Positions 1 to 18,337 of a stretch of DNA of 64,000 bases are shown piece after piece. This DNA is from Escherichia coli. GTDB taxonomy: Bacteria > Pseudomonadota > Gammaproteobacteria > Enterobacterales > Enterobacteriaceae. Within the stretch, counting starts at the first letter, position 1. Each line of letters begins with the position of its first letter. Under the pieces are notes generated by a model that had not been told where the DNA came from, did not search any database, and was given only the letters and a program-made list of their open reading frames with translations. The translations under genes and the position numbers were made by a program. The DNA is taken from NCBI RefSeq assembly GCF_011045215.1, contig NZ_CP049201.1. One strand, written 5' to 3'.

Positions 1-2
1 GA

Positions 3-719
3 GTGCTATTTGATAGCGCCAGAATGACATTAAGTCGACAAGAGAAAATAGTCAGGCTCTCCGAGTCAGAGTGCCATTTACTGCTGGCTTTTTGGCTTGG
101 ATTGTATAAAAAAGAAGAGATAATCAATTATGTCTGGAAAAATCGCAGCGGATGCGTTTCTGAATCGAGCTATTACAAACTTATCAATCAACTGCGAAAT
201 AACTTCAATCGGGTGGGGCTTCACGCATCAGATATTGTTACACATCCCCGGGTGGGAATATCGTTATCGATAACGCTGACTTCCGCTGATGAAATGTGCG
301 ACCTTCAGCAACAAAACGATGATGGGGCGCAGAAAATAAAATTCCGTGCCCTTTTGTCGCACCGGTTTATGGTTAAATGTAAAAACATGCGAGTACTTTG
401 TTGCACCAGCGGTGTGGTATTGCTGATAGGTATTATCCTCATTTTTAGTTTTCCCAGCGATACAACATGGAATAAATCTGATAAGGAGTTCACCTCGCTT
501 GGCGAGTTTGATGGTTATATTTTCTTTAAAATGAAGACGGATAAATTGACATTCAAGCAAGTCATCGCCGCATATACATCGATGACATTAAAACCTGACC
601 CGCAAAATGGTCATTATCTTTATTACATCAGGGAGCCTGATATCAATCTTTTATTTCAGTGTTTAAATCCGATTGAAAACGTGGTGCCAAAATGTTTAAC
701 CATAAAAGAACAGTACTGA
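3..719 (+). CDS. ToxR/CadC-like membrane-anchored transcriptional regulator (MarT/YqeI-like); 5' end probably cut by window edge
   Basis: N-terminal OmpR/PhoB-type winged-helix pattern (LLLAF...VW...SYYKLINQLR), single TM helix (VVLLIGIILIFSF), C-terminal periplasmic part with Cys pair; paralog of 1397-2137. Confidence 0.6.
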   Translation: MLFDSARMTLSRQEKIVRLSESECHLLLAFWLGLYKKEEIINYVWKNRSGCVSESSYYKLINQLRNNFNRVGLHASDIVTHPRVGISLSITLTSADEMCDLQQQNDDGAQKIKFRALLSHRFMVKCKNMRVLCCTSGVVLLIGIILIFSFPSDTTWNKSDKEFTSLGEFDGYIFFKMKTDKLTFKQVIAAYTSMTLKPDPQNGHYLYYIREPDINLLFQCLNPIENVVPKCLTIKEQY

Positions 720-1198
720 TTACGATGACGGTCATTGCGCTGGTGCTGATCGTGATATTTGGCAGAAACGGGTGGAGTGTTCAGCGAAATGTTATGAATG
801 TGGATAATTTTATTTGTACATCTAAATCAATAGTTTATATTGAACCTATGAAGATGAAACTGCGTGGTACGTTTGTGCTGGATCTTGAGTCAGACCGAAT
901 CGCCATTCATTATGAAGTTGAACAGGCGGATCATAAGGAAAAACTTTTTTTCCAGGATGTTCATATCAGTAAATTACTCCGAACAGGTATCAGAACGTTC
1001 ACATTTAAAGTCAGCTCAGTAAATAAATTTTCTGCTGATTCAACCGGAGATATGTTTTCCTGGTTACGTCTCCTTCAACCCGGTACGGTGAATGAGTTGA
1101 ATATTGTCCAGATCGGTCAAAATGCATATCTGTATTCGTTGAACAGGCATTTATATAATATTTGTACGACAAGCACCAACGCGGTGAATACGCACTAA
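692..1198 (+). CDS. small membrane protein, ToxS/FidL-like partner of the upstream regulator
   Basis: Overlaps upstream gene by 28 nt; N-terminal TM helix; paralog of 2110-2598 (shared C-terminal YLYSLNRHLYNICT motif). Confidence 0.5.
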   Translation: MFNHKRTVLITMTVIALVLIVIFGRNGWSVQRNVMNVDNFICTSKSIVYIEPMKMKLRGTFVLDLESDRIAIHYEVEQADHKEKLFFQDVHISKLLRTGIRTFTFKVSSVNKFSADSTGDMFSWLRLLQPGTVNELNIVQIGQNAYLYSLNRHLYNICTTSTNAVNTH

Positions 1199-1396
1199 TA
1201 GCTGTGTAATGGCCGGTCTATATGGGCATTGTGGCGGGTGTTGATAACGGAAGGGACTATTACATGTCCAATTTCGTCTGGAGCTGGCCTGTGTTAATAT
1301 GAACGCTGAAGGTTCCGTAAGGCTCTTAACTCAGTGCCTGGCAAGGCTGTACAACGGCAGAATCGGATACTCAATGAATAAATTGCAGAAGAAACC

Positions 1397-2137
1397 ATGA
1401 GCGAGCAAAAGTATCTTATCGACAATCGCGTGATATTTGATTCTGAGCGTATGTCATTGACTCACTCAGACAAAACGGTGAGCATTTCAGAATCCGAAAC
1501 GAATTTGCTGCTTGCTTTCTATAAGGGGTTATTCAAAAAGGATGATTTAATCGGCTGGGTCTGGGGGCGTAAGGGAGTCGTAGTTTCTGATGCCAGCTAT
1601 TATAAGCTCATCAATCAGTTACGTAATACTTTCGACAAAATAGGTCTACCGCCCTCATCTGTGGTGACGCGGCCCAAAGTCGGCGTTGAGCTGGTTTTAT
1701 CCATCACGCTCATTAAGCCTGCGACTCCCCGACAACCTGCTGCTGAACCGGTAGAACACTCAGCCGAATCCTTCAGCGAAACCCCGACAATACATGAACA
1801 CAATAAAACCGCTGTAGCAGGCCAGAGAGACTGGCTTTTTCTGGTATTGGCCGCGCTGTTGATGATCGCAGGATTTGGCGCCAGTCTGTGGGAGAGCCAT
1901 CCCTACTTTTCAGTGCCCGTTACCCATGACGGTTACTATTTTTATAAAGTAAGTAACGATAAAACGTCCTTCGAGGATGTGGCTGCGGCCTATGCAGAAT
2001 TGACAATTCCGGTGATTAAGCAGAATGGACGTCATATTTACTATATCAGAGTGCCGGATACCCATATTTTCGTCCAGTGCCTCAACCCACTCACCGTAGC
2101 GGAGCCAAAATGTATTACCCTAAAAGAACGTTATTAA
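1397..2137 (+). CDS. ToxR/CadC-like membrane-anchored transcriptional regulator (MarT/YqeI-like)
   Basis: Same architecture as 3-719: winged-helix N-terminus, TM helix (LFLVLAALLMIAGFGA), periplasmic C-terminus ending KCITLKERY. Confidence 0.65.
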   Translation: MSEQKYLIDNRVIFDSERMSLTHSDKTVSISESETNLLLAFYKGLFKKDDLIGWVWGRKGVVVSDASYYKLINQLRNTFDKIGLPPSSVVTRPKVGVELVLSITLIKPATPRQPAAEPVEHSAESFSETPTIHEHNKTAVAGQRDWLFLVLAALLMIAGFGASLWESHPYFSVPVTHDGYYFYKVSNDKTSFEDVAAAYAELTIPVIKQNGRHIYYIRVPDTHIFVQCLNPLTVAEPKCITLKERY

Positions 2138-2598
2138 GAATATTCACCGTGTTCTTTATTCTCGTCTCCGTGATGTTATGGGTACAGGTAATAAAGAAGC
2201 ACGCGGTCAGTCACCCCTCCGCGGGCAATTTTTTCTGTGCCACCAAAACGATAAGCAACATACAGGCGAAGGGGATAACCGTTGCGGGGGATATTGTCAT
2301 CGACTTCAAAACGCAACGTATTACGTTACAGCATGATGTGAAACAGCATAATAATGCGCATAGCCTGTTATATCGGGATGTTTACATGAAAAATCTGCGG
2401 CGCGTCACTGACGATCTTTTTACGTTTGAGATTGATTCTGTAAAGATATTTCCTGATGACAATGTCGGGAATTTTTTCTCCTATTTTCGCCTGCTCCATC
2501 CGGGGGGCCGCAACGAATTGCGAATTCAACGCATTGGCGAGAAAACCTATCTTTTTTCGCTTAATCGTCAGATTTATAACGTCTGTACAGCAAGTTGA
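2110..2598 (+). CDS. small membrane protein, ToxS/FidL-like partner
   Basis: Start chosen at MYYPKRTLL to match paralog; 28-nt overlap with upstream gene, N-terminal TM helix. Confidence 0.5.
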   Translation: MYYPKRTLLRIFTVFFILVSVMLWVQVIKKHAVSHPSAGNFFCATKTISNIQAKGITVAGDIVIDFKTQRITLQHDVKQHNNAHSLLYRDVYMKNLRRVTDDLFTFEIDSVKIFPDDNVGNFFSYFRLLHPGGRNELRIQRIGEKTYLFSLNRQIYNVCTAS

Positions 2599-2878
2599 AC
2601 TGCACAGGAATGCCCCGAGAGATTCTCTGAGGCCGTATGATAAGAGAGCGGTAAGCGGTAAGGTAACTGAAAGCTCATTACTTATTTAAATACATGGGTT
2701 TATATCAATCGTTCTGATTCTGTTCAACAGTGACAGAGTGAGATTATGATTTTTGTAAGATCTTCTTCCAGACTTTATCTGCCCTGATTAGCTATATTTT
2801 CGCCGCTGTAAACGGACATCAGAATACGTTTAAGTAGTCGTAATTAATGCTTTTTTCAATAAGATAAAGAGGGAGTAT

Positions 2879-3424
2879 TTGTCCATGTCTACGCGACTTC
2901 GTGGCGCTGCAATAATTTGTTTTTGTCTGCTAGCCTCATCTCAGAGTATGGCTAGTGGCACACATACGGTATCAATGGGGTATGCTCAAACACATCTGAG
3001 CGCATTAAAAAGCTCGAACAGCAAAGATCTTCATGGCTTTAATATAAAATATCGCTACGAGTTTGACGAACGCTGGGGCTTTATTGGTGCGTTAACGGCG
3101 ACTCGCCACGAAGTTGAGCATTATAGCTGGCAATCAGCAAAATTAAAAAAAGAGGGTACCGATACCATTGATTATAGTTCGGTAATGTTTGGCCCAACTT
3201 ATCGCTTTAATGATTACATCAGCCTGTATGGCAATGCAGGTATGGCGAGAATGAAAATGAAAAATACTCACTCAAACGAATCAACGGATGATTCGTTTGC
3301 ATACGGGGCCGGGGTAATATTTAACCCGTTAACCAACCTATCGCTTGATCTTTCCTGGGAAGCGTCAAAATTCTATTCTGTCGATGCCAATACGTTTGGC
3401 GTAAGCGTTGGCTATCGCTTTTAA
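2879..3424 (+). CDS. Ail/Lom/PagC/OmpX-family outer membrane beta-barrel protein
   Basis: Signal peptide, alternating beta-strand pattern, C-terminal GVSVGYRF ending in aromatic residue; RBS-like GGAG upstream. Confidence 0.75.
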   Translation: MSMSTRLRGAAIICFCLLASSQSMASGTHTVSMGYAQTHLSALKSSNSKDLHGFNIKYRYEFDERWGFIGALTATRHEVEHYSWQSAKLKKEGTDTIDYSSVMFGPTYRFNDYISLYGNAGMARMKMKNTHSNESTDDSFAYGAGVIFNPLTNLSLDLSWEASKFYSVDANTFGVSVGYRF

Positions 3425-3485
3425 AAATTGTACTCCCAGGGAGTGGGGATAAGTAAAATCATATTAAAGAAATTAAGGTTTATCC

Positions 3486-3842
3486 ATGAAATATATATTA
3501 CCAGCTCTTTTTACGGTGTTTTTAACCGCCTGTAGCGCTAACTCATTACATTCGGGGGCGGAACGGGTTCGTGTGACTCATAACGAGCCTGGAAAAGAGT
3601 GTTCGTGGTTAGGCGACATCACTGGCAGCCAGGGCAACTTTTTTACCGGAGGTTGGACCTCGAACAGTAACCTCGAAACAGGCGCGCGGAATGATATGAA
3701 AAATCAGGCCTGGAAAATGGGTGGAAATGTTGTTGTGCTGCTAACGCAACGCGCAGGGCAAACAGGCAGTTCGTACAATGGCAGTGGTTCAAGTCAGCAA
3801 ACTAACGTGACGCTAAGCGGATCGGTCTACCGTTGCCCATAG
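3486..3842 (+). CDS. small lipoprotein
   Basis: Lipobox LTAC after signal peptide; 118 aa; Gly/Ser-rich periplasmic body. Confidence 0.55.
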   Translation: MKYILPALFTVFLTACSANSLHSGAERVRVTHNEPGKECSWLGDITGSQGNFFTGGWTSNSNLETGARNDMKNQAWKMGGNVVVLLTQRAGQTGSSYNGSGSSQQTNVTLSGSVYRCP

Positions 3843-4018
3843 TCTACTATATTTCATTGATGAACAGAGAGCAGATATCAACATTGACGATTGCGGTCTG
3901 CTCTGATTCATAAATGTCATAAAGGAATGATATTTCATTTTTTTGAAGGTTATTATGATAATTTCTTTTATGCCGGAAAATATATCTTATATTACTTGTG
4001 GGTATGTTGTTGTAAGGT

Positions 4019-4594
4019 ATGGATATACATTTTAAAGCACAATCTCCTGAGGCAGTAACGCTCGCCGTGTGGCCAGATAATAATCCTCTGTTCACTGACT
4101 CTCTTGCCCATTTGATCACCGAAATAAACGTAATAAATCGCGTAGAAGATTTTCTTTTCGTCAATTTTTGCATCGATAACTTTATATACTTTATTCATGA
4201 TGAGTGGCTTGAAAAGTTGAACAAGTCAGGCCTGAGGGGGGTGCTGGTTATTGACCGTTTTATGCATTCGCTGGCGAATTATTGGCGTGAAAAACAACAG
4301 GATATTATCTTGTTATCGGTTGGCGATCGGGACCTGACGTCATTTGTATCGGCCCTGAATAGCCTGTCTTATGGACAAAGCAGGGTGCTAGAAGATGTCA
4401 TGCCGATAACAGAAAAAGAAATTTTTGTGTTACGTAAACGCCTCTCCGGTATGTCCGTAAGAAATATCGCACTCACCCTTAATTGCTCGGTTAAAAGTAT
4501 TTATTATTGCCAGTATTCTTTATTAAAAAAATTGAGGCGTTCGTCACGAATAGGCGAGATTTATATCCATCACTCTCACGTGCATGAGACTTAG
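4019..4594 (+). CDS. LuxR/GerE-type HTH transcriptional regulator
   Basis: C-terminal LuxR-type HTH (ITEKEIFVLRKRLSGMSVRNIALTLNCSVKSIYYCQYSLLKKL); AT-rich gene. Confidence 0.55.
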   Translation: MDIHFKAQSPEAVTLAVWPDNNPLFTDSLAHLITEINVINRVEDFLFVNFCIDNFIYFIHDEWLEKLNKSGLRGVLVIDRFMHSLANYWREKQQDIILLSVGDRDLTSFVSALNSLSYGQSRVLEDVMPITEKEIFVLRKRLSGMSVRNIALTLNCSVKSIYYCQYSLLKKLRRSSRIGEIYIHHSHVHET

Positions 4595-4798
4595 TCGTTA
4601 GCCTGTTTTTTCTGGCGGAATGACGGCATAACCCGGAAGGGATATGCCGCCTGCTTCAGCCTATCACGCCATCAACGCAAAAACTCCCCAGCCAAAATAC
4701 TCCCGGCTGTAGGTAACATTACGCATCGGCGCCGCGCTTAACTCTGCCCGAACCTCAAGCGCGAAACCTGATCCTACCCACGTAATATGGACACAGGC

Positions 4799-5665
4799 CT
4801 AAGCGAGGTTCTGGTTTTCAAATTGTTCCGGACTGAGGCCGCCACACCAACTGTGCCGCCGCCACCGATTGTAATCACATTCGATATAATTAAACACCGT
4901 TGCCCGCATTATTTCCCGGCTGATAAAGTGTTCTCCATGGATACATTCCACTTTCAGCGAATGAAAGAAGCTTTCCACGCAGGCATTATCGTAGCAGCAA
5001 CCTTTTGCGCTCATACTTCCACGCAGATTATGCCGCTTCAGTTGCGCCTGATAATCTGCTGAACAGTACTGGCCTCCACGGTCCGTGTGAACGATAACGT
5101 TCCGGGGCCTCTTACGCCGCCACAGCGCCATCTGCAGGGCATCGCAGGCCAGTTGCGCCGTCATGCGTGGCGACATTGACCAGCCAATAACGGCACGTGA
5201 CCACAGGTCAATGACCACTGCCAGATACAGCCAGCCTTCATCTGTACGTAAGTACGTGATGTCTCCTGCCCACTTCTGGTTCGGGCCACTGGCGTAAAAA
5301 TCCTGCTCCAACAGATTTTCTGACACAGGCAGGCCGTGTGCGCGGTAGCTGACCGGGCTGAACTTCCGGGAGGCCTTTGCCCTCAGTCCCTGACGGCGCA
5401 GGCTTGCCGCCACGGTTTTTACGTTAAAGGGGTAACCCTGAGCACGCAGTTCATCCGTCAGGCGTGGGGCACCGTAACGCTGTTTTGACCGGGTAAAAGC
5501 CGCGAGGACAACGCTGTCGCAGTGTTGGCGGAACTGCTGACGCGTGCTTATCCTTGTCCGCCGCTGACACCACGTATACCAGCCGCTGCGGGCCACCCGG
5601 AGCACGCGGCACATTGCTTTGATGCTGAACTCAGCCTGATGTTTTTCAATAAAGACATACTTCAT
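4799..5665 (-). CDS. insF: IS3 transposase OrfB (DDE integrase domain)
   Basis: 288-aa translation matches IS3 InsF as remembered ([24 protein letters not shown]...). Confidence 0.9.
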
Positions 5666-5970
5666 TTCAGGCGCTTCGCGAAGTATGTCGCGGCCTTTTG
5701 GAGGATAGCCAGCTCTTCATCCCGTTCTGCCAGCTGGCGTTTGAGACGTGCAATCTCGGTAGACATCTCCAGTTCACGTTCAGAAGACGTCTGCTGATTT
5801 TGCTGTTTACTGCGCCAGTTGTAGAGCTGTGATTCATACAGGCTGAGTTCACGGGCTGCGGCAGTAACACCGATGCGTTCAGCAAGCTTCAGGGCTTCAC
5901 TGCGAAATTCAGGCGAATGCTGTTTACGGGGTTTTTTACTGGTTGATACTGTTTTTGTCATGTGAGTCAC
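5662..5970 (-). CDS. insE: IS3 transposase OrfA (HTH)
   Basis: Translation [31 protein letters not shown]... matches IS3 InsE as remembered; overlaps orfB as expected for programmed frameshift. Confidence 0.9.
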
Positions 5971-6016
5971 CTCTGACTGAGAGTTTACTCACTTAGCCGC
6001 GTGTCCACTATTGCTG

Positions 6017-6175
6017 GGTAAGATCACATCGCTATTAATATTTTGACGAATGATAAGGTATTCAAGGCAGGGTTAAGACGTAAGATGCGAAAAGCAGCCA
6101 TGGACAGAAACTATCTCGCGTCAGTACTTGCGGGGAACTGGCTTTCGTAATCTTGCCCTGATCCCGATAGCGGTC
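6017..6175 (+). pseudogene. ISAs1-family (H-repeat) transposase 3' fragment
   Basis: Nucleotide similarity to 18355-18490 (catcgctattaatatt...caaggcagg...gactacctcgcgtcag), encodes [20 protein letters not shown]. Confidence 0.6.
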
Positions 6176-6337
6176 TAATTATTTATAGCACAAGTGGTTT
6201 TTCAATGAATGGGGAAGATCAAGTGAAAAATAATATTCATTAAAAATTGAATAAAATTGAGAGAAGTATATCTCTTTTTAAAAAAGATCCTATTACTTGA
6301 TAGAAGTAATGGTAATTTATGATATGTTCTTATTACA

Positions 6338-6589
6338 TTGAAGAGTATAACTCTTTCCAAAACAGAATTAACATCATCCGTTCTTAAGCAATATCGATTG
6401 GAACTTCTGAAGTATCATGTTGAACTTGTTGAGTTATTTAATAAATATTATATTGTGAATTATAATCCTCAAAGACCCTATCGTATGCATATGTTTCCTC
6501 CTGTGGATGCGGTAGATGGACTTGTGTTTGGTGAAGTGGACCTGAGTAGAATTAGAGATAATATGAATCAGATCTCAAGGAGAATATAA
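6338..6589 (+). CDS. hypothetical protein, possibly 5' part of a frameshifted gene continuing to about 6800
   Basis: 83-aa ORF in AT-rich DNA; a second open frame follows immediately in a different frame. Confidence 0.3.
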   Translation: MKSITLSKTELTSSVLKQYRLELLKYHVELVELFNKYYIVNYNPQRPYRMHMFPPVDAVDGLVFGEVDLSRIRDNMNQISRRI

Positions 6590-6906
6590 GAATTGGAAAG
6601 GAGCTTTCCTTTCAGGCTGCTTTAACTTCGGTAAAATACGTTCTTGAAGCACCAGATAATAAAGTCGGTAATATTGCCACTATTGAGTTTTTCATCAAGG
6701 TTAATTACGAGAATAACCCTTCTGATAAAGCTGAAGTTGAGAAGGTGCTTAATGAATCAGAACTGAAGAATGCTCTTAAGTCCAGAATTCTTGATGATAC
6801 TGTCAGGCAACACAGATGATTAAATCATCTGGATGTATTTAATGCATAAACATTTCTGAATGATACATAAAAATTGTATTTAATGTTTCCCTCCTGGAGA
6901 ATCTCT

Positions 6907-7191
6907 ATGCCCACAGCAGCCAGACTCAGCGATAAAGGCACCCAGCATGACGGTTATTATGAGACCACCATTATTGCAGGCTCCTCCACCGTCTTTATTG
7001 ATGGTATGCCCGCCGCCCGTCAGGGCGATCCGCTGACACCGCATTCCAAACCTGACCATCCCCCTCACCCCCGTAAAATCGCAGGCGGCTCTGCCACTGT
7101 CTTTATTGACGGTAAACCTGCCGCCAGAACCGGCGATGCCATTGACTGTGGCGGCGTGGTTATCGGTGGCGGCACGGTAAATATAGGCTGA
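6907..7191 (+). CDS. PAAR-domain protein (T6SS spike tip)
   Basis: Two repeats of the PAAR motif (FIDGMPAARQGD, FIDGKPAARTGD), about 95 aa, directly upstream of vgrG. Confidence 0.8.
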   Translation: MPTAARLSDKGTQHDGYYETTIIAGSSTVFIDGMPAARQGDPLTPHSKPDHPPHPRKIAGGSATVFIDGKPAARTGDAIDCGGVVIGGGTVNIG

Positions 7192-7211
7192 TTAATTATC
7201 AGGGAGGCTGT

Positions 7212-9611
7212 ATGCCCTCAGAAGGATTACGTTTCACGCTGTCGGTGGACGGTATCGTGGAGATGGCGACGGCGGTGGTGAGCTTCCGTCTGTACCAGCA
7301 CCACTGCACGCCGTTCATCCTGGATGTGGATATCGCCAGCGGGCTGTCTGACCTGACGGCGGAGGATTTTCTGGAGAAGAGCGCGGTGCTGACGGTCTGG
7401 CAGGGTGATATCCCGCAGCGTTACGTCAGCGGTATCGTGACGGAGGTGCAACTGGGGGAGAACAACGACTGGCAGATGCGTTATTCCCTGAGCATCAGCC
7501 CGCCGCTGTGGCGGGCAGGGTTACGGCAGAACTTCCGTATCTTCCAGCAGCAGGACATCCAGACGATATCAGCACAGCTTCTGAGAGAGAACGGAGTGAC
7601 GGCATGGATGCCGCTGTTTTATGAAGACCATCCGGCGCGGGAGTTCTGTGTGCAGTACGGGGAAAGCGACCTGGCGTTTCTGGCGCGGCTGTGGGCGGAG
7701 GAGGGGATTTTCTTCTTTGAGCGGTTTGCGGCGGACAGTCCGGAGCAGAAGCTGACGCTGTGCGACGATGTGGCGGGGCTGTCACAGGCGGGAGAGCTTC
7801 CGTTTAACCCGGACACATCGGCAGGAGCGGAGACGGAGTGTCTCAGTACGTTCCGTTATGAGGCGCATGTCCGCCCGTCGTCGGTGCAGAGTCAGGATTA
7901 CACGTTTAAGGTGCCGGACTGGCCGGGGATGTATGAGCAGCAGGGTGAGAACCTGAACGGACAGCTGGCGCAGTACGAGATATTTGATTATCCGGGAAGG
8001 TTCAAGGATGAGCAGCACGGCAAGGATTTCACGCTGTACCAGATGGACAGCCTGCGCAGTGATGCGGAAAAGGCCACAGGGCAGAGTAATTCACCGAAGC
8101 TGTGGCCGGGAACGCGGTTTACGCTGACGGGGCATCCGCAGAAGATGCTGAACCGTGAATGGCAGGTGGTACAGAGCATACTGTCAGGAAGCCAGCCGCA
8201 GGCGCTGCACGGCAGCCAGGGGAGGGGAACCACGCTGGGAAATCAGTTAGAGGTGATACCGGCAGACCGGACGTGGCGTCCACGGCTGCAAAGCAAACCG
8301 AAGGTGGACGGGCCGCAGAGTGCCATTGTGACCGGGCCGAAGGGTGAGGAGATATTCTGCGACGAACATGGCCGGGTACGGGTGAAGTTCCACTGGGACC
8401 GTTATCACGGGATGACGGAGGCGAGTTCATGCTGGGTGCGGGTATCGCAGGCGTGGGCGGGGCCGGGGTTCGGTAACCTGGCGATACCGCGGGTGGGCCA
8501 GGAGGTGATTGTTGACTTCCTGAACGGCGACCCGGACCAGCCCATCGTCACGGGACGGACCTACCATGAAGATAACCGCTCCCCGGGCGACCTGCCGGGA
8601 ACGAAGACGCAGATGACGATACGGTCGAAGACCTATAAAGAAAGCGGATTTAACGAGTTGCGGTTTGAAGACGCCACCAGTAATGAGCAGGTGTATATCC
8701 ACGCGCAGAAGAACATGGATACGGAGGTGCTCAACGACCGGACAACGGATGTGAAGCATGACCATACGGAGACCATTGGTAACGACCAGAAGATAACGGT
8801 GGTGAAGGGGCAGACGGTTGAGGTCGGGACCAGAAAAGAAGGAGGCCACGACCAGAGTATCACGGTGGCGAACGACCGGAGCATAACGGTACGTAACGAC
8901 CAGACGCTGAAGGTGACAAATGACCGGACGGTGAGCGTGAGTCACGATGACGGTCTGTACGTCAGAAATGACCGTAGGGTGACGGTGAAAGGGAAGCAGG
9001 AGCATAAGACGACGGGTAACCACATCAGCCTGGTGGAGGGGAAGCACAGCCTGGAGGTGAAGGGGGACCTGGCGGAGAAGGTGAGTGGCGCGCTGGGGAT
9101 AGAAGTGGACGGGGATATCGTGCTGGAGAGCAGCAGCCGGATAAGCCTGAAGGTGGGTGGCTCGTTTATCGTCATTCAGCCGGGCGGAGTGGATATTGCC
9201 GGGCCGAAGATAAACCTGAACGGTGGGGGCAGTGCGGGGACACCGGTGGGGACGATGCAGCCGGCGGTGCTGGAGGCTCCGGAGGATGAGAGCAGTGATG
9301 ATGGCAGTGATGACTCCGGAGAGGATAGTGGCAATCCCGCAGGGAGTGACGGAGGAGGTGATGGCGGTGACGATGAAGATGATCCTGAAAAATATACCCT
9401 CCAGTTCCATTTTACGGACGATGACGGGATACCGTATTCAGAGACGCAGTATATTGCCTTTTTTGAGGATGGCACACAGACGCGTGGTGAAACAGACAGA
9501 GAGGGATATACAGAAATATTTTATACAGATACAGCACAGGAAATTAAAGTCCAATTGTTATTTTCGGATGCTTTTTATATTGAGCCGGAGGGGCATTATG
9601 GCAGGGAATAA
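7212..9611 (+). CDS. vgrG: T6SS spike protein VgrG with acidic linker and C-terminal extension
   Basis: 799 aa; gp27/gp5-like core, beta-helix repeats (NDRT.. repeats), acidic stretch EDESSDDGSDDSGEDSG, then about 70-aa C-terminal tail. Confidence 0.9.
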   Translation: MPSEGLRFTLSVDGIVEMATAVVSFRLYQHHCTPFILDVDIASGLSDLTAEDFLEKSAVLTVWQGDIPQRYVSGIVTEVQLGENNDWQMRYSLSISPPLWRAGLRQNFRIFQQQDIQTISAQLLRENGVTAWMPLFYEDHPAREFCVQYGESDLAFLARLWAEEGIFFFERFAADSPEQKLTLCDDVAGLSQAGELPFNPDTSAGAETECLSTFRYEAHVRPSSVQSQDYTFKVPDWPGMYEQQGENLNGQLAQYEIFDYPGRFKDEQHGKDFTLYQMDSLRSDAEKATGQSNSPKLWPGTRFTLTGHPQKMLNREWQVVQSILSGSQPQALHGSQGRGTTLGNQLEVIPADRTWRPRLQSKPKVDGPQSAIVTGPKGEEIFCDEHGRVRVKFHWDRYHGMTEASSCWVRVSQAWAGPGFGNLAIPRVGQEVIVDFLNGDPDQPIVTGRTYHEDNRSPGDLPGTKTQMTIRSKTYKESGFNELRFEDATSNEQVYIHAQKNMDTEVLNDRTTDVKHDHTETIGNDQKITVVKGQTVEVGTRKEGGHDQSITVANDRSITVRNDQTLKVTNDRTVSVSHDDGLYVRNDRRVTVKGKQEHKTTGNHISLVEGKHSLEVKGDLAEKVSGALGIEVDGDIVLESSSRISLKVGGSFIVIQPGGVDIAGPKINLNGGGSAGTPVGTMQPAVLEAPEDESSDDGSDDSGEDSGNPAGSDGGGDGGDDEDDPEKYTLQFHFTDDDGIPYSETQYIAFFEDGTQTRGETDREGYTEIFYTDTAQEIKVQLLFSDAFYIEPEGHYGRE

Positions 9612-10401
9612 TAATACTAGTGGGACTTCACAACCCGAGTCGCAAGTATGTGTAGTACCGCAAAAAATTACAAATAAATTTAAAATAATGATGAGTAAGG
9701 CTTGTAAAGCACAGAAAATGGTTTTATTGAAAAGAGCAGATGATATTATGTCATGGGAGGGGGAACAACAACGAGATTTTATTAAAGTTTTTGGCCTTAA
9801 AGGCGAGGACATTATAAAAATCAGAAAGGTTGGGGAAGATACTGGGAAACGAATGCAAGCGAGACTATTCATAATGGATGGCATCAGACAAATAATGACG
9901 ATTGCAAATGGTTTGACGATCGAAAGCTATAAAGATTATACGAACTGCAATGAATTTGCTGCTTTTATTAGTCCACATCTTGATCCTCCTTACATTGTAA
10001 ATATCGGAGCGCATTTTGAATACAGACATGGTATAAAACAGTCGGTTACAGGTAGAGACTCTCATGTAAGTACACTTTGCCATGAAATGTCCCATATATT
10101 TTGGTATTGGGGTGACAATCAAAAAGGTGGTATGTGGACTCAGGATTATACGGGTATTAATAAGTTCGCAACAAGTAATAAGGATGAAGTTAGCTATGAG
10201 AAACATGTTTCAGTGGCTAATGATCTGGTTACATTGCGTAAAGATCAGTTATTTGAGAATGCATATAATGTTGAAAGATATTTTTATATAAAATTAAATG
10301 ATGAAGATATTGAAGCTCAAGATGAGAATATGTTAGCAAAAAAAGTAGAGGATAAAATAAAAGAGATAGAAAAATGTTTTGATGAGTTGATGGGGAAATA
10401 A
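9598..10401 (+). CDS. putative T6SS effector, HExxH zinc-metallopeptidase-like
   Basis: Start overlaps vgrG stop by 14 nt; HEMSH motif (LCHEMSHIFWYW); AT-rich versus GC-rich vgrG; the longer listed ORF 9223-10401 is an in-frame read-through of vgrG sequence. Confidence 0.6.
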   Translation: MAGNNNTSGTSQPESQVCVVPQKITNKFKIMMSKACKAQKMVLLKRADDIMSWEGEQQRDFIKVFGLKGEDIIKIRKVGEDTGKRMQARLFIMDGIRQIMTIANGLTIESYKDYTNCNEFAAFISPHLDPPYIVNIGAHFEYRHGIKQSVTGRDSHVSTLCHEMSHIFWYWGDNQKGGMWTQDYTGINKFATSNKDEVSYEKHVSVANDLVTLRKDQLFENAYNVERYFYIKLNDEDIEAQDENMLAKKVEDKIKEIEKCFDELMGK

Positions 10402-10402
10402 G

Positions 10403-11242
10403 ATGAAGAGGTTGGCTTTCTATAATCTAAATTATGTTGTACTGATGGTTTTTTTTCTTTGTTTTTTGCCATTATCTATTGCAATTGCAATAGATAATGA
10501 GAATCTTTTTGTAAAAAAATACAGATTCGGTTTTGAACGAAGAAATGACAATGGGAAACCAATTATTTATCTTAGCCATAATTTAGCGCCAGAGGAAAAT
10601 ATAAGTAATGAATTAACAAATGATGTTGTTGTTAAATTGGTGGTTAAGCCACATGCTGAAAATATTTTAGCTACTATAACTTTTTATAACAGTAGTACTA
10701 AATCGTATTTTCTCCCCAGAATATATTATCCAAAGAACTTCCAAAAAGGAAATGGAGATGTATTTGATGCTTTGTGTGATGACGAATTCTTGATTACATC
10801 AGGAAATATTAGCTTAGACTATCTAGGAGGCTTTTGTCCCTTTGAGCTTGATTTGAATTTGAGCCGATGGGTGGAAATTACGGCAGGTAAAAAAATATCT
10901 TTTGATGTAAAATTGAATGATATGCATTCATTTCTCCCCAGTTTAAATAATTATCATATAAAAACATTAAACTACAAACTTGTTAGGAGAAAATGGTTTG
11001 TATTAAAATCAATTAATGAAACATTCCTCTCTATTTTGATGAAAAGATACTCATGTAATGAATATGATTTTAGAGCTATATCATTTAGTGGAGAGGGATG
11101 TGATAATTATGAATTTGATAAAAATACGTTTTTTTTTGTTAATCAAATATTAGATAAAGATGATGAGCAACATTCTGTTCATATTAGGTCTAATGAATTT
11201 TCCATCAATATCGATGGAAGCTTGGTAAAGCAACCTTATTGA
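10403..11242 (+). CDS. putative cognate immunity protein (exported or membrane-anchored)
   Basis: Starts 2 nt after effector stop; N-terminal hydrophobic signal/anchor (VVLMVFFLCFLPLSIAIA); AT-rich. Confidence 0.5.
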   Translation: MKRLAFYNLNYVVLMVFFLCFLPLSIAIAIDNENLFVKKYRFGFERRNDNGKPIIYLSHNLAPEENISNELTNDVVVKLVVKPHAENILATITFYNSSTKSYFLPRIYYPKNFQKGNGDVFDALCDDEFLITSGNISLDYLGGFCPFELDLNLSRWVEITAGKKISFDVKLNDMHSFLPSLNNYHIKTLNYKLVRRKWFVLKSINETFLSILMKRYSCNEYDFRAISFSGEGCDNYEFDKNTFFFVNQILDKDDEQHSVHIRSNEFSINIDGSLVKQPY

Positions 11243-11299
11243 TTAAAATGTATCGCAGGTTTTATTTTCTGTAATGCTGGTGCATGTGCGTAAATATTT

Positions 11300-11730
11300 C
11301 TTAAGAGCCGGAAACACCTCTTCCGCCTTTATCGACGATAAACCTACCGCCAGAACCGGTGATGCCATTGACTGCGGTGGCGTGGTTAAAGGTGGAGGGC
11401 GATGTGGTGCTGGAGAGCAGCAGCCGGATAAGCCTGAAGGTGGGCGGCTCGTTTGTGGTCATCCATTCAGGGGGCGTGGACATCGTCGGGCCGAAAATCA
11501 ATCTCAATAGCGGCGGTAGTCCGGGAACGCCGGTGCCGACGCTGCAACCGGCGGTTCTGAAAGCGCTGGCAGATGATAAAAGTTTAGCGGCTGAGCAAAA
11601 TGATAGTAATGCATCGTCCGATCAGAATGATAACAACGATGAGGGTGAGGAAGCGCCAGAAAAATCGGTGTGTAAGGAGTGCCTGAAAAGGGCGCAAGAA
11701 GCCGCCGCCGTTTTTGCGCCTCGTGGATAA
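11300..11730 (+). pseudogene. PAAR 3' fragment fused to vgrG 3' fragment (deletion scar of a second PAAR-vgrG copy)
   Basis: 11310-11398 is near-identical to PAAR 3' end (7090-7180); 11398-11560 near-identical to vgrG 9120-9280; a distinct C-terminal tail follows. Confidence 0.7.
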
Positions 11731-11736
11731 GGGAGA

Positions 11737-12506
11737 ATGACAATGATAACAGTATCGCCACACGCTACCGATCAAGACAAATATATTATCTGGCTGAAGC
11801 AAGCTGAATCATTCTGTTCTGCCGCTGGTTTGGATTACATAGATGTGCTTGTTGACCAGGCTGGAACCGACCAACCTTTGCAAAATGATATGCTTCATCT
11901 GTCGCCAGCCATTCACTGGTATGCCCTGTTTGAAGGAACGCCTGAAGCTGAGACGATGGAGTATTCCCCTGTAGTGTTACGCCTGTACTTTGCGCTCAGT
12001 AGCCATCGCAAATTTCTGGCACAACTGATGGCGTCATTTGCTGATACGCCGCGTCTTACTTTGTTGATATCCCCTCTTACATTCGACCTGCTGGGCGGCA
12101 TCTTCAGGTATTGTCACAGGTTCAGTGGGAAGAACAGACCGGATTGCTGCGTTACTATGATAATCGGGTGTTCCCTTTACTGTTCACACATGTTTTGACT
12201 AACGAGCAGCAGGCGACATTTACTGATATTGCGTTGTTCTGGAGCTGGTTAGACCGTGATGGTGAGATTAACTGGAAATCAGGAAGTTTTTCACCAGAAC
12301 GCAGGCTTACTGACAACCCGGAGATGAATCGGGTGGATGATGTACAGGTGGGATTGATGGGCTGTATCTGCGACGCTGAAGTCCTGATGAAGGAGAAAGC
12401 AGTCAGTGAACTCAGTCAGGAAAGCTATTTTGCCCACTGTCTTGATATTGCTTTCAGGGCCAATGACGCGAAATATTTCGGAGCTTTGCGGGACTTCGAA
12501 GGATAA
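11737..12506 (+). pseudogene. hypothetical T6SS accessory protein (adaptor-like position), apparently frameshifted
   Basis: Two overlapping ORFs (11737-12198, 12111-12506) in different frames, directly after the vgrG tail fragment. Confidence 0.35.
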
Positions 12507-12819
12507 TATTGTGGTGATGTACGGGGAGATTTATCTGTTTAAAAGTCCGTAGCTGTTAATATCAAGAGATAATCGTGAAATAAACGGAAAATCAAGCTCG
12601 ACATGTAATGGTAGTATCCATCATGTTGCATTTGTGTTCGATCGTAATGTCAGTTCACTTGGCTGCAATATATTTTGCGTAATATCATCAATGCTCTGTC
12701 GATATTCCAATGTGTGACAATCGAAAGATATGCATTTTATTTGCTTCTATGTCAAAACTTTATTGTCGTAGAAACAATACCCATCAATTAAAATCTCTCA
12801 AAGTAAAAGAACCAGCAAC

Positions 12820-13362
12820 ATGTCCAGCAAAATAAGAAATGGAATGAATATAACAAAAGTAGTTAAAGGCTGTCTGGTATTAATTTTGATGGTGATTTCT
12901 GGTTGCTCAGCAGATAATTACGACGATTATACTGCAGGTGATCTCCGGGCAATAAATCATATTAAAGGTATCAGTATTAATTGGTTCACCGTAAATGGTT
13001 ATCGGGTCCATGGTTTGGGCGGTGGATATTGCTGCATAATGTTACCAAAGAAGTGGCATTCTGGATTAAAAGCCCGGATCGAGTGGGAAGTAGACCCGAC
13101 CCCCCTTGAACCTATTGCAATGAAAAAAGAAGGTTTTGGCTATGAAGAAGATGCTTATGCTAAACATGCTGCAAATTATCAAAAATATAAAGTAATTGTT
13201 GACATCCCGGAATACGGCGCTGAACGTTGTGGCCTGACCGTTCATTTTCTGCCGTGTAATCAGATTAAAGTGACAACCGTCTGCGAGGGCTATGGCACAC
13301 CGAATTATCCTATCAAAGAACCCCGCGAGATGAAGGAACCTGCAACATGTCCAGCAAAATAA
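12820..13362 (+). CDS. lipoprotein, candidate Tle1 immunity (Tli-like)
   Basis: Lipobox ISGC after signal peptide; Cys-rich periplasmic domain; 3' end overlaps tle1 start. Confidence 0.5.
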   Translation: MSSKIRNGMNITKVVKGCLVLILMVISGCSADNYDDYTAGDLRAINHIKGISINWFTVNGYRVHGLGGGYCCIMLPKKWHSGLKARIEWEVDPTPLEPIAMKKEGFGYEEDAYAKHAANYQKYKVIVDIPEYGAERCGLTVHFLPCNQIKVTTVCEGYGTPNYPIKEPREMKEPATCPAK

Positions 13363-15440
13363 GTGGTCTGGCTTTTCCGTGTTATGCCCCCCCGGTGTTC
13401 CCTGAAGATGGGCGATTAATATTATCTGAAGCGCAGGTAAACGCGAACTACCTAAAACAAATCAATAAAACAGAAGAGCACAAAACCAACTGTAGTAAAC
13501 AGGCTGGATTTAGAATTGGCTTTACGTGTAATCAAAGTATGCATATTAGTCTGTTTTTTGATGGTACAAATAATAATGAATATAATGACACTCCTGGACA
13601 CCCAACCAATATTGCCAAACTGTTTCATACGACCTATCAGAACGCAGAAGAACAGGGATATTTTAACTACTATATACCGGGTGTAGGCACACCATTTCCC
13701 AAGATAGGTGAAATGGATTACAGCAACAGCGGGCTGGAGTTCGCTACTGGTGGTGAAGATCGAATTAATTGGGCATTATTACGCCTCGTGGATGCCCTGA
13801 GCTATTCCATTGACCCTTCCCATAAGCGACTGGATGATAATGTGGCAAAAGAGCACATTCCTCTTATGCGCGCTCCCTGGCCTATGACTGGTGAAGTGAA
13901 TCGTCGCAATGTGATTAACCCCTACCTGGAAAAATTACAGGGACTGTTAGAGCAAGCCAGTCCGCGCCTGCTAAACGTAAAGCTGTTTATCTACGGATTT
14001 TCCCGTGGCGCAGCGGAAGCACGAACTTTTGTTAACTGGTTGACTCAGTTAGCTTGCCCGCAGGAGCAACAGGTGATGCTGGCCGGGTTAGCTGTCAGTA
14101 TTGAGTTTTTGGGGCTGCTGGATACCGTAGCTTCTGTGGGGGCGGCGCATGTTTTACCGGGCGCTGCCGGTCATATGGGATGGGCCGATAGTACTCAGCA
14201 ACTCCCTGATGAGAGGCAGTTTCCCGGCCTGATTAAATGCTGCCGCCACTTCGTTGCCGCGCATGAGCAGCGGCTGTGCTTTCCGCTGGATTCAATCCGT
14301 CGTCCAGACGGAAATTATCCTTTAAATGCAGAGGAAATTATCTATCCGGGGATGCACTCTGATGTCGGTGGTGGCTATCCCGTTCGCGATCAGGGGAAGT
14401 CCTGTGGTGACTCAGGCGAAATTCTTTCTCAGATAGCACTGCATGATATGTATCTTGCTGCATTTGATTCAGGAGCACCACTTGCTGTTTATTCTAAATT
14501 TGTTACTCCATTAATAAAAGGTGTGTCGCCTCTGCGAATTATGAGTCCTTCTAGCGTAAAGGAATTTACGATTGCTAATTCATTAACAAAACGCTTCAAC
14601 ATCTGGCGACAAACGCTGCTGAACACCACCTTGCAGGGTACAGAAGAAATGATTGATACGAGGGAAGGTTATCACTCCTATCAACTTGCCCAGGTTCTTG
14701 AAAGCGCAATTAGCGATCAGATCGGCTGGATCACCGCCTGGCGTATCGGTCGCTATGCGAATAACAGCCTTCTTGTGCAACCTTTTTATATTAAGGCGCC
14801 ACAGCTGGATAAAGATGGACTTGATAAAGAGGCTAAAGCGCGTAAAGAACAAATGGAAAATATTGAAAAAGAGCGGGCGAACAAGCAGAAAGGGAATGGC
14901 ACACTTGATGAAAGTAATCAGGGCATTCCTATCCTTGACCCAACCAATGCTCAGTATCAGTTGCGAGAGGCAGCCCGAGAATTTCAGAGCGATTATAAAG
15001 GATGGACGCGCGATATTAACGGCAGCGTCATGGAGAAAGCCATTCAGATTCTTGTGGATGTCATTCCTAAATATCCGGTGTATCTGATTAATGGCGATGA
15101 TGAAGCAAAAGAATATCAGCAAATTAAGGCTATGGGAGACGGACTCTATCCACAATTTTTTATTGATTCACTGGGAACGGGAACGCGTACTCAGCCATGC
15201 GCTGAATTACTGGCCCTCTATGATGACCAGGTTCACGACTCCCGCGCCTGGTTTATGCAAAGTTCGCTGGGTGGACGTGAACCCTGGGGCGGTTATTTTC
15301 GCTACCGCATGATTTACTTCGGTGATGAGGCTAATAAAGAGCTGAAGCTAATCTCTGCAGATGGCAAAGTTGTTGGCGATCAGCCCACATCCAACCGGGT
15401 CATTTATTGGATGGAATCGAAAACGGTGAGCCGAGGTTAA
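13347..15440 (+). CDS. tle1: T6SS phospholipase effector, Tle1 family (DUF2235 alpha/beta hydrolase)
   Basis: 697 aa; GxSxG lipase motif in YGFSRGA; located in the vgrG island. Confidence 0.75.
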   Translation: MSSKISGLAFPCYAPPVFPEDGRLILSEAQVNANYLKQINKTEEHKTNCSKQAGFRIGFTCNQSMHISLFFDGTNNNEYNDTPGHPTNIAKLFHTTYQNAEEQGYFNYYIPGVGTPFPKIGEMDYSNSGLEFATGGEDRINWALLRLVDALSYSIDPSHKRLDDNVAKEHIPLMRAPWPMTGEVNRRNVINPYLEKLQGLLEQASPRLLNVKLFIYGFSRGAAEARTFVNWLTQLACPQEQQVMLAGLAVSIEFLGLLDTVASVGAAHVLPGAAGHMGWADSTQQLPDERQFPGLIKCCRHFVAAHEQRLCFPLDSIRRPDGNYPLNAEEIIYPGMHSDVGGGYPVRDQGKSCGDSGEILSQIALHDMYLAAFDSGAPLAVYSKFVTPLIKGVSPLRIMSPSSVKEFTIANSLTKRFNIWRQTLLNTTLQGTEEMIDTREGYHSYQLAQVLESAISDQIGWITAWRIGRYANNSLLVQPFYIKAPQLDKDGLDKEAKARKEQMENIEKERANKQKGNGTLDESNQGIPILDPTNAQYQLREAAREFQSDYKGWTRDINGSVMEKAIQILVDVIPKYPVYLINGDDEAKEYQQIKAMGDGLYPQFFIDSLGTGTRTQPCAELLALYDDQVHDSRAWFMQSSLGGREPWGGYFRYRMIYFGDEANKELKLISADGKVVGDQPTSNRVIYWMESKTVSRG

Positions 15441-16275
15441 GTTCATAAGATTGAGGGGTTGGTGACCGGGAAAATGTAGACATGTAGTGCCTATTCACCC
15501 CAGTTCAAACCCATCCGCATCCCGCCATGCCGGAAACTTCACACTGTACTCCCAGGGAAAAATCACGTAATGCTGTTTTTTTTGTACTAAATAATTCGCA
15601 TTTTATGTTCAATAATTGAGGTGTTCCTTATTACCTAAAGCTGTTTTTCATTGCTTATACATGATCAAATACTCATTGCATAATTAAGGGGGACAAAATG
15701 GAACTTAAAAAATTGATGGAACATATTTCTATTATCCCCGATTACAGGCAAGCCTGGAAAGTGGAACATAAATTGCCAGATATTCTATCTGTTAACTATT
15801 TGCGCCGTTATTTTTGGTGCATAAGGCTGGGAAGATATAGATGATTTGGGGAAACACATCCCGATTTTTTGAAGTGATATGGTGATTTTGAAAATGGTAT
15901 TCCTGTTCACGATATCATTGCCAGAGTTGTATCCTGTATCAGTCCTGCAAAATTTCATGAGTGCTTTATTAACTGGATGCGTGACTGCCATTCCTCAGAT
16001 GATAAAGATGTCATTGCAATTGATGGAAAAACGCTTCGGCACTCTTATGACAAGAGTCGCCGCAAGGGAGCGATTTATGTCATTAAAATCCGTCTTCATA
16101 TTATTTGCGATGTCCCTGATGAACTTATTGATTTCACGTTTGAATGAAAAGGGCTGAAGAAATTATGCATGGCAGTCTCCTTTCGTTCAATAATAACAGA
16201 ACAAAAGAAAGAGCCAGAAATGACGGACAGATATTATAGCATTTCTGCTGATTTAACCGCAGAGAAGTTCGCCAC

Positions 16276-18337
<2,062 letters not shown>

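Follow-up and report, generated by a model that had tools for sequence, protein, structure and literature searches.

Can a Tle1-type phospholipase still be fired when the spike gene heading its module has been reduced to a stub? The question is raised by a type VI secretion system (T6SS) locus in a 64,000-nucleotide stretch of Escherichia coli DNA (contig NZ_CP049201.1, assembly GCF_011045215.1), here called the window. The locus forms the variable end of a T6SS vgrG island of the E. coli type and adjoins an ISAs1 remnant, yafV, fadE and gmhA/lpcA; its gene order is PAAR, vgrG, M35 peptidase, presumed immunity gene, stub, tla1, tli1a, tle1. The stub (11308-11730) consists of a PAAR fragment followed by a vgrG fragment, and a first reading of the window, referred to below as the original prediction, had taken it for an in-frame fusion left by deletion of a second PAAR-vgrG unit. 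The comparisons reported here indicate that it is most probably a non-functional recombination scar of single origin, which leaves Tle1 without a cognate spike. Protein families were assigned with NCBIfam (PAAR, VgrG, Tla1, Tli1a), with Pfam (Tle1) and by comparison with solved structures. The scar and the sequence leading into it contain the following features.

11243..11307, no strand: AT-rich spacer between the immunity gene and the PAAR remnant; it matches stub-bearing genomes only.
11308..11388, plus strand: PAAR remnant (PAAR'), about codons 60-88 of 94, with codon starts at 0 mod 3.
11387..11398, no strand: junction zone, from base-by-base comparison with the PAAR and vgrG genes of the window and of strains A32 and N96.
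11386..11730, plus strand: vgrG remnant (vgrG'), the last 114 codons and the stop of a 743-amino-acid VgrG, with codon starts at 1 mod 3.

The original prediction held that 11310-11398 repeats the 3′ end of the PAAR gene, and this is supported by a repeat search and by BLAST, in which 11327-11398 aligns with 7101-7172 over 72 nucleotides at 87.5% identity (E=9e-20). The source of the similarity within the window is the intact PAAR gene at 6907-7191. At the protein level the homology begins near 11308, where AGNTSSAFIDDKPTARTGDAIDCGGVV corresponds to AGGSATVFIDGKPAARTGDAIDCGGVV. PAAR' is 80-84% identical to the PAAR genes of A32 and N96, and 92-94% identical over about 50 nucleotides to PAAR genes of other islands. 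The fragment is truncated at its 5′ end as well, and about 30 of 94 codons are left. These lack a start codon context and run into nonsense past the junction, and a complete PAAR domain (about 94 amino acids, NF033420) is absent. The 65-80 nucleotides preceding PAAR' (11243-11307/11322) have matches confined to genomes that carry the same stub.

The claim that the two pieces are fused in frame proved wrong. The PAAR codons start at 0 mod 3 (open reading frame 11274-11510) and the vgrG codons at 1 mod 3 (open reading frame 11359-11730), so that the pieces are offset by one base and the PAAR frame turns to nonsense past the junction (...VVKGGGRCGAGEQQPDK...). The last PAAR-specific base is 11386 and the first vgrG-specific base is 11389, with 'TA' common to both; an imperfect GGTGGNGG follows the 'TA' and is present in both parents. 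The overlap of 2 nucleotides within a short imperfect GGTGG microhomology argues for illegitimate recombination, and the junction carries the signature of microhomology-mediated joining rather than that of homologous recombination.

A copy of the vgrG 3′ region does follow the PAAR piece, as had been proposed: 11384-11576 aligns with 9097-9289 of the upstream vgrG over 193 nucleotides at 78% identity (BLAST, E=6e-41). Chance accounts for neither this match nor that of the PAAR piece. The near-identity to 9120-9280 was overstated, since identity there is 79.5% and the sole perfect run is one of 38 nucleotides (11407-11444 and 9120-9157). From about 11577 the stub departs from the upstream gene into the different C-terminal tail that had been predicted. 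The true parent of the stub is, to judge from alignment, a 743-amino-acid VgrG that is intact in other E. coli in the arrangement PAAR-vgrG-tla1-tli1a-tle1. The match to the 3′ end of the A32 vgrG is 96.3% over 377 nucleotides and is colinear into tla1, with 6 amino acid differences from A32 and none from 33F4. The remnant encodes residues ~630-743 of this protein, comprising the last beta-helix strands, an acidic linker and a Tle1/Tla1-type tail ending in ...KECLKRAQEAAAVFAPRG. Descent from vgrG is thus established by colinear homology to the 3′ end together with the downstream tla1. The stub open reading frame (11359-11730) has no NCBIfam match and lacks the VgrG spike core (TIGR03361/TIGR01646), and no Shine-Dalgarno sequence precedes either its GTG at 11359 or its ATG at 11362. 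The equivalent of 11386-11730 in 33F4 and related genomes is already annotated by the NCBI pipeline (PGAP) as a pseudogene, "VgrG, incomplete, missing N-terminus"; the PAAR piece carries no annotation in those records.

Genomes that hold the second vgrG intact were found in A32, N96, CFIAFB20120266 and FEX669. Strain A32 has a complete unit of PAAR, vgrG, a DUF4123 gene, three DUF3304 genes and Tle1, and CFIAFB20120266 has the same complete PAAR-vgrG-DUF4123-DUF3304-Tle1 unit. In FEX669 an intact vgrG-Tle1 unit without PAAR lies directly after hcp. Strain N96 carries a full tandem, in which a vgrG gene, an M35-like gene and an immunity-like gene are followed by PAAR-vgrG-tla1-tli1a(x3)-tle1; its M35-like gene and the gene after it are 24% and 32% identical, respectively, to their counterparts in the window. 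The modules of A32, N96 and FEX669 are 95-98% identical to the window from 11384 onward and occupy the same chromosomal site, upstream of the ISAs1 remnant, yafV, ivy and fadE. They have the full 743-amino-acid VgrG, usually a full PAAR and two or three copies of tli1a, whereas the window has the stub and one tli1a.

Compared with A32, about 1.9 kb is missing at the junction (the last ~20 nucleotides of PAAR, the intergenic gap and vgrG codons 1 to ~629), and a further ~180 nucleotides of the 5′ part of PAAR have been lost. Because the PAAR piece is cut at its 5′ end too, at least two breakpoints are required. The proposal that a second PAAR-vgrG unit was reduced to a stub therefore stands in part. 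The stub is the remnant of such a unit, as the 96.3% match to A32 and the N96 tandem attest, but a single simple deletion leaves the 5′ truncation of PAAR unexplained, and the scar did not arise in this genome.

The distribution of the scar was searched in 5426 complete E. coli genomes. A 721-nucleotide stretch covering the end of the immunity gene, the spacer, PAAR' and the start of vgrG' is present in 12 of them at 99.6-100% identity. The junction always lies behind the same M35-peptidase module, and there were no cases of the immunity gene without the stub. The stub-bearing strains come from varied hosts and sources, including baboon, calves, meat, chicken and humans. Sliding comparison across the stub-bearing genomes examined revealed a block of about 3.6 kb, from ~9000-9200 to ~12800, with 99-100% identity in every one of them; it contains the tail of the upstream vgrG, the M35 gene, the immunity gene, PAAR', vgrG' and tla1. 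Mosaic sequence (66-100% identity) borders this block on both sides, in the vgrG core to its left and in tli1a/tle1 to its right, and the tle1 alleles linked to the stub differ at synonymous sites (dS) by up to 0.22. The position of the block varies: in 33F4 it lies directly after hcp with no PAAR upstream, and in GPT24-02 and the window it lies after PAAR in second position. From these patterns we conclude that the scar probably has a single origin and has since travelled within a ~3.6-kb cassette, through homologous crossovers that fall in the vgrG core and the Tle1 module. The mosaic pattern further suggests that the block spread into strains already holding a Tle1 module. The 5′ part of the intact vgrG of the window (7200-7600) is 65-77% identical to the other stub-bearing genomes and 92-95% identical to the first vgrG of N96, a pattern that indicates a probable crossover inside the vgrG core.

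The intermediate expected on the way to the scar, an immunity gene followed by the spacer and a full PAAR-vgrG, was found neither in the complete E. coli genomes nor in metagenome contigs or protein-context look-ups. A 24-mer across the right edge of the spacer had no matches in metagenome contigs. Homologues of the presumed immunity protein are rare (four clusters found), and their contexts in Salmonella enterica serovar Moero and in two Logan contigs contain neither the spacer nor a matching arrangement. The Moero contig (7-9650) encodes the closest relatives of the M35 and immunity proteins outside E. coli, at 64% and 52% identity. Downstream of the pair come three genes of unknown kind, then PAAR and vgrG genes that are both frameshifted, the vgrG having a related tail, and finally another M35-like gene; this contig represents a further array of this module type in decay.

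Whether Tle1 is really orphaned depends on the genes behind the stub, and these bear out the predicted cargo of a frameshifted accessory gene, a lipoprotein and a 697-amino-acid GxSxG protein.

11743..12507, plus strand: tla1, DUF4123 adaptor/chaperone for Tle1, inactivated (NF053803).
12806..12836, plus strand: 31-nucleotide copy of the tli1a 3′ end with the first codons of the gene that follows (…KEPATCPAK*/MSSKI), direct repeat D5, 94% identical to 13333-13363.
12820..13362, plus strand: tli1a, DUF3304 lipoprotein, immunity to Tle1, intact (NF053804 Tli1a_fam, 199 bits, cutoff 110).
13347..15440, plus strand: tle1, 697-amino-acid phospholipase effector, intact (Pfam PF09994 and PF22137).

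The Shine-Dalgarno sequence of tla1 is strong (AAGGGAGA) and overlaps the stop of vgrG'. The gene has lost one nucleotide from a G run (GGGG to GGG at 12091-12093), which splits Tla1 into two open reading frames scoring 89.6 and 117.1 bits over profile positions 1-110 and 109-232; the cutoff for full-length Tla1, 200 bits, is reached by neither. All four references (33F4, GPT24-02, A32 and N96) have GGGG and an intact tla1 of 254 amino acids. Apart from the lost G, the window tla1 differs from that of 33F4 at only 4 positions. The frameshift may be a very recent real mutation or a homopolymer sequencing error.

Tli1a belongs to its family and has a lipoprotein signal, with the lipobox ISGC at residues 26-29. 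The 31-nucleotide repeat, owing to which tli1a and tle1 both begin with MSSKI, retains in its first copy (12806-12836) only the last 11 codons of tli1a (tblastn). This copy is all that remains of a further tli1a from a tandem array, of which relatives have two or three copies. Tle1 carries the motif GFSRG at residues 217-221 and the expected domains, with matches to PF09994 at 1.4e-13 and 1.8e-8 and to PF22137 at 7e-57. It matches the Tle1 of Pseudomonas aeruginosa (4O5P) at E=2e-117 over residues 11-677, and that of enteroaggregative E. coli (EAEC; 6SJL_D) only at E=8.7e-7. The window Tle1 is therefore predicted to be a phospholipase of the P. aeruginosa, adaptor-dependent type.

The 186 nucleotides of tail-specific sequence occur in 67 E. 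coli genomes, in exactly one copy each. Fifty-three of these have it within a contiguous full-length vgrG-tla1 locus, 12 have it as the stub, and 2 have it in genes annotated only as encoding a gp5 trimerisation domain protein. The stub is thus the sole copy of the tail in all 12 stub-bearing genomes, which supports the proposal that the cargo has no cognate spike. In P. aeruginosa, the last ~20 residues of VgrG4a sit in a crevice between Tla1 and Tle1, and binding is abolished by point mutations in this segment (PMC13133936). Up to about residue 690 the upstream VgrG of the window shares 85% identity with the 743-amino-acid VgrG of A32, and beyond that it diverges; its tail consists of an acidic linker and a further C-terminal region that is putatively transthyretin-like (TTR). 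Since Tle1 is of the P. aeruginosa type and the tail of the upstream VgrG is unrelated, we infer that the window Tle1 probably cannot be loaded on the upstream VgrG. A precedent for such delivery was considered in EAEC, where a TTR-type VgrG binds Tle1 directly, and was rejected because the window Tle1 is of the adaptor-dependent type.

The state of the cargo varies among the stub-bearing genomes, and in two others besides the window the locus is clearly dead. One has tssC split by an IS21 insertion sequence (IS), IS600 between the stub and tla1 and IS1 in tli1a, and another has truncated tssB and vgrG and a frameshifted tle1. The ratio of nonsynonymous to synonymous substitution (dN/dS) between tle1 alleles, 0.1-0.7, was rejected as evidence in either direction. 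With dS of up to 0.22, the stub-linked alleles were imported by recombination, and the ratio is silent on selection after orphaning.

Several routes to this arrangement can be weighed. In the one preferred here, the precursor would most likely have been a tandem of vgrG-M35-immunity and PAAR-vgrG-tla1-tli1a-tle1, as in N96. From this tandem, most of PAAR and some 1.9 kb of vgrG would have disappeared on one occasion, which set about 30 PAAR codons against the last 114 codons of vgrG with a frame offset of one base. The block would then have spread by homologous recombination into strains with a Tle1 module, where Tle1 would thereby have lost its loading site, no other copy of the tail being present in stub-bearing genomes. 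The module of the window may have decayed further, given its tla1 frameshift and the absence of T6SS core genes upstream. Displacement by an incoming cassette, through homology-facilitated illegitimate recombination instead of deletion in situ, is a possibility that we hold tentatively. Here a donor vgrG(TTR)-M35-immunity segment ending inside PAAR would have entered by homologous crossover in the resident vgrG or the 5′ region of PAAR, its other end being joined illegitimately at about codon 629 of the resident vgrG, so that the stub would be what is left of the displaced spike gene. Such an event would yield exactly one intact PAAR-vgrG and one stub, and it agrees with a junction of 2 nucleotides plus imperfect microhomology and with 33F4, where the block directly after hcp without PAAR shows crossovers in the vgrG core. 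It is also the mechanism proposed for T6SS modules of Vibrio cholerae (PMC5361080), and agrobacteria are known to have recombination hot spots in their vgrG genes (PMC8546570). However, displacement accounts for the 5′ truncation of PAAR' no more readily than deletion does, as both need a further event, and no donor with immunity gene, spacer and PAAR was found. The outcomes of displacement and deletion cannot be distinguished on the present data, which they fit about equally.

It is unlikely that the stub is instead a useful element that has been kept, either as an orphan 3′ cassette for a cargo switch or as the coding sequence of a free tail peptide able to bind Tla1 and Tle1. For the switch, recombination between 9120-9157 and 11407-11444, a 38-nucleotide perfect run within 193 nucleotides of 78% identity, would remove the M35 module (2,287 bp) and restore a vgrG of 743 codons, in frame and with the Tle1-specific tail. 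The recombinant predicted from the coordinates is 2,232 nucleotides long, in frame and of the same length as the A32 vgrG, yet among the 53 contiguous vgrG-tla1 loci it has no match at 99% or above (best 96.3%), and there is thus no sign in the compared genomes of recent recombination back to a full vgrG. For the peptide, the isolated C-terminal domain of VgrG4a binds Tla1 and Tle1 in P. aeruginosa (PMC13133936), the vgrG' frame is open, and several genomes have kept the downstream genes intact. Against either use, the stub lacks a Shine-Dalgarno sequence, the presence of PAAR' and the frame offset give the impression of an accident, and stub-bearing loci are often IS-ridden. The other vgrG stubs of this island also differ in length and lack PAAR'. 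In CFIAFB20120266 there are two more 5′-truncated stubs (835-1410 and 5000-5854; 192 and 285 codons), each at the head of a DUF4123 cargo module; one is immediately preceded by an IS21-family element, and the other by the last gene of the module before it. Stub-headed modules are therefore recurrent in this island with varied breakpoints. A recurrent PAAR-vgrG fusion was considered and rejected, as neither of these stubs has PAAR' and their breakpoints differ. A more elaborate proposal appears improbable to us: that the vgrG 3′ end and tla1 serve as a right-hand homology arm by which the M35 cassette could enter any strain with a Tle1 module through homologous recombination, at each entry disarming the resident Tle1 but sparing its immunity, and that recombination in the 38-nucleotide core would re-arm it by restoring a 743-amino-acid VgrG, making a reversible cargo switch. 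That the similarity is mere local repeat content, of the glycine-rich GGTGG type common to PAAR and VgrG, can be dismissed almost entirely. PAAR does have internal repeats (family D3) and vgrG 24-nucleotide beta-helix repeats (family D2), but alignment refutes this reading: 377 nucleotides match the exact vgrG 3′ end at 96.3%, colinear into tla1, the 72-nucleotide PAAR match at 87.5% is in register with the PAAR 3′ end, and RefSeq annotates the span as partial VgrG.

Several observations weigh against a non-functional scar left by an N96-like tandem. No intermediate was found, so that we can only infer the route. Over its 72 nucleotides PAAR' is closer to the PAAR of the window itself (87.5%) than to the PAARs that precede intact vgrG-tla1 genes (80-84%). 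The vgrG' frame is an open reading frame of 123 codons with GTG and ATG starts, and its translation is possible. The tla1 frameshift sits in a homopolymer, where a sequencing error could account for it. Finally, tla1, tli1a and tle1 are intact in most stub-bearing genomes with a complete T6SS (among them 33F4, GPT24-02 and JX21CE8), which fits continued use as well as it fits a recent event.

The closest characterized counterpart of the orphaned module is the tle1 locus of P. aeruginosa (VgrG4a-Tla1-Tli1a/b-Tle1; PMC13133936), which has the same protein families and gene order as the window, including the DUF4123 adaptor Tla1, the DUF3304 outer-membrane lipoprotein Tli1a as immunity protein and a C-terminal VgrG extension ending in a short helix. 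This comparison covered protein families and gene order. Unlike the P. aeruginosa locus, the window has only the last 114 codons of this VgrG, out of frame with a PAAR fragment, and a frameshifted tla1. In the EAEC Sci-1 system (PDB 6SJL), Tle1 binds the TTR domain of VgrG directly. The window resembles it in having a VgrG-delivered Tle1-family phospholipase with a lipoprotein immunity protein and, upstream, a VgrG with a putatively transthyretin-like tail. It differs in that its Tle1 is distant (E=8.7e-7) and accompanied by a DUF4123 adaptor, and the EAEC precedent is consequently no proof that the upstream VgrG can carry the window Tle1. Ma et al. 2018 (as cited in PMC10711316) described E. 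coli vgrG islands that contain modules of the DUF4123/Tle1 type.

Scars of a related kind are known from other bacteria. In V. cholerae, sequential displacement of T6SS effector modules leaves orphan immunity genes (PMC5361080), and in agrobacteria recombination hot spots occur inside vgrG (PMC8546570). As in those cases, a newer vgrG-linked module in the window stands upstream of an older one without delivery, with mosaic flanks and crossovers in the vgrG core; unlike in V. cholerae, the whole older module has been kept (adaptor, immunity and effector) and the scar includes a PAAR fragment. The stub is also like the orphan modules of Rhs and CdiA proteins in being a 5′-truncated piece, with a conserved core before a variable 3′ end, downstream of a full-length paralogue. 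Unlike those orphans, it shows no sign in the compared genomes of recombination back into the full-length gene, and what varies in it is a docking tail instead of a toxin domain. The kind of scar, in which vgrG recombination leaves orphan genes behind, is thus known and partly annotated, and the present locus is a further well-resolved example. Its particular features are the PAAR fragment in the scar, the retention of the whole older module, and a single origin linked to diverse tle1 alleles.

The intact module upstream of the scar consists of four genes.

6907..7191, plus strand: intact PAAR gene, 94 amino acids (NCBIfam NF033420 T6SS_PAAR_dom, 161 bits, cutoff 124).
7212..9611, plus strand: intact vgrG, 799 amino acids, with its own differing C-terminal tail (TIGR03361, 597 bits).
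9598..10401, plus strand: M35-family metallopeptidase effector with an HEMSH motif (open reading frame translation; RefSeq orthologue "M35 family metalloendopeptidase").
10403..11242, plus strand: protein of 279 amino acids with a hydrophobic N-terminus, presumed immunity to the M35 effector from its position and open reading frame.

The M35 effector is the cargo of the vgrG at 7212-9611. An Rfam scan of 6000-16500 gave no match, and a scan of 10900-13500 found no terminators and promoter-like sites at or below shuffled expectation. There are no T6SS core genes or Hcp upstream in the window, although they precede the Tle1 module in other strains. An IS3 copy (~4765-6026, junction ~6026) instead joins the vgrG island to an unrelated island, which is common to one other complete E. 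coli genome (PapRG-06-5) at a different chromosomal position. The unrelated island (1-4700) encodes two winged-helix regulators, an Ail/Lom outer-membrane protein, a lipoprotein and a LuxR-type regulator. Its segments 3-1198 and 1397-2598 are two paralogous pairs, each of a winged-helix/CadC-like regulator with a C-terminal membrane segment and an overlapping gene for a membrane protein of ~170 amino acids. Downstream of tle1, the ISAs1 remnant is interrupted at 16276-18229 by an IS21-family element of 1,954 bp (istA 340 amino acids, istB 260 amino acids; IS100-like in size), whose flanks overlap by 5 nucleotides relative to an uninterrupted genome, which fits a target-site duplication.

These results correct the reading of the locus. 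What looked like a second spike is a pseudogene fragment, and immunity is probably all that the Tle1 module behind it still provides, with tli1a likely to be the only gene of the module still useful in the window. The 12 genomes that share the scar constitute a natural experiment, since several have an intact T6SS together with intact tla1-tli1a-tle1. This experiment bears on whether an adaptor-dependent effector can be fired without its cognate VgrG tail, and on how whole effector modules, rather than immunity genes alone, are left behind when a new module arrives.

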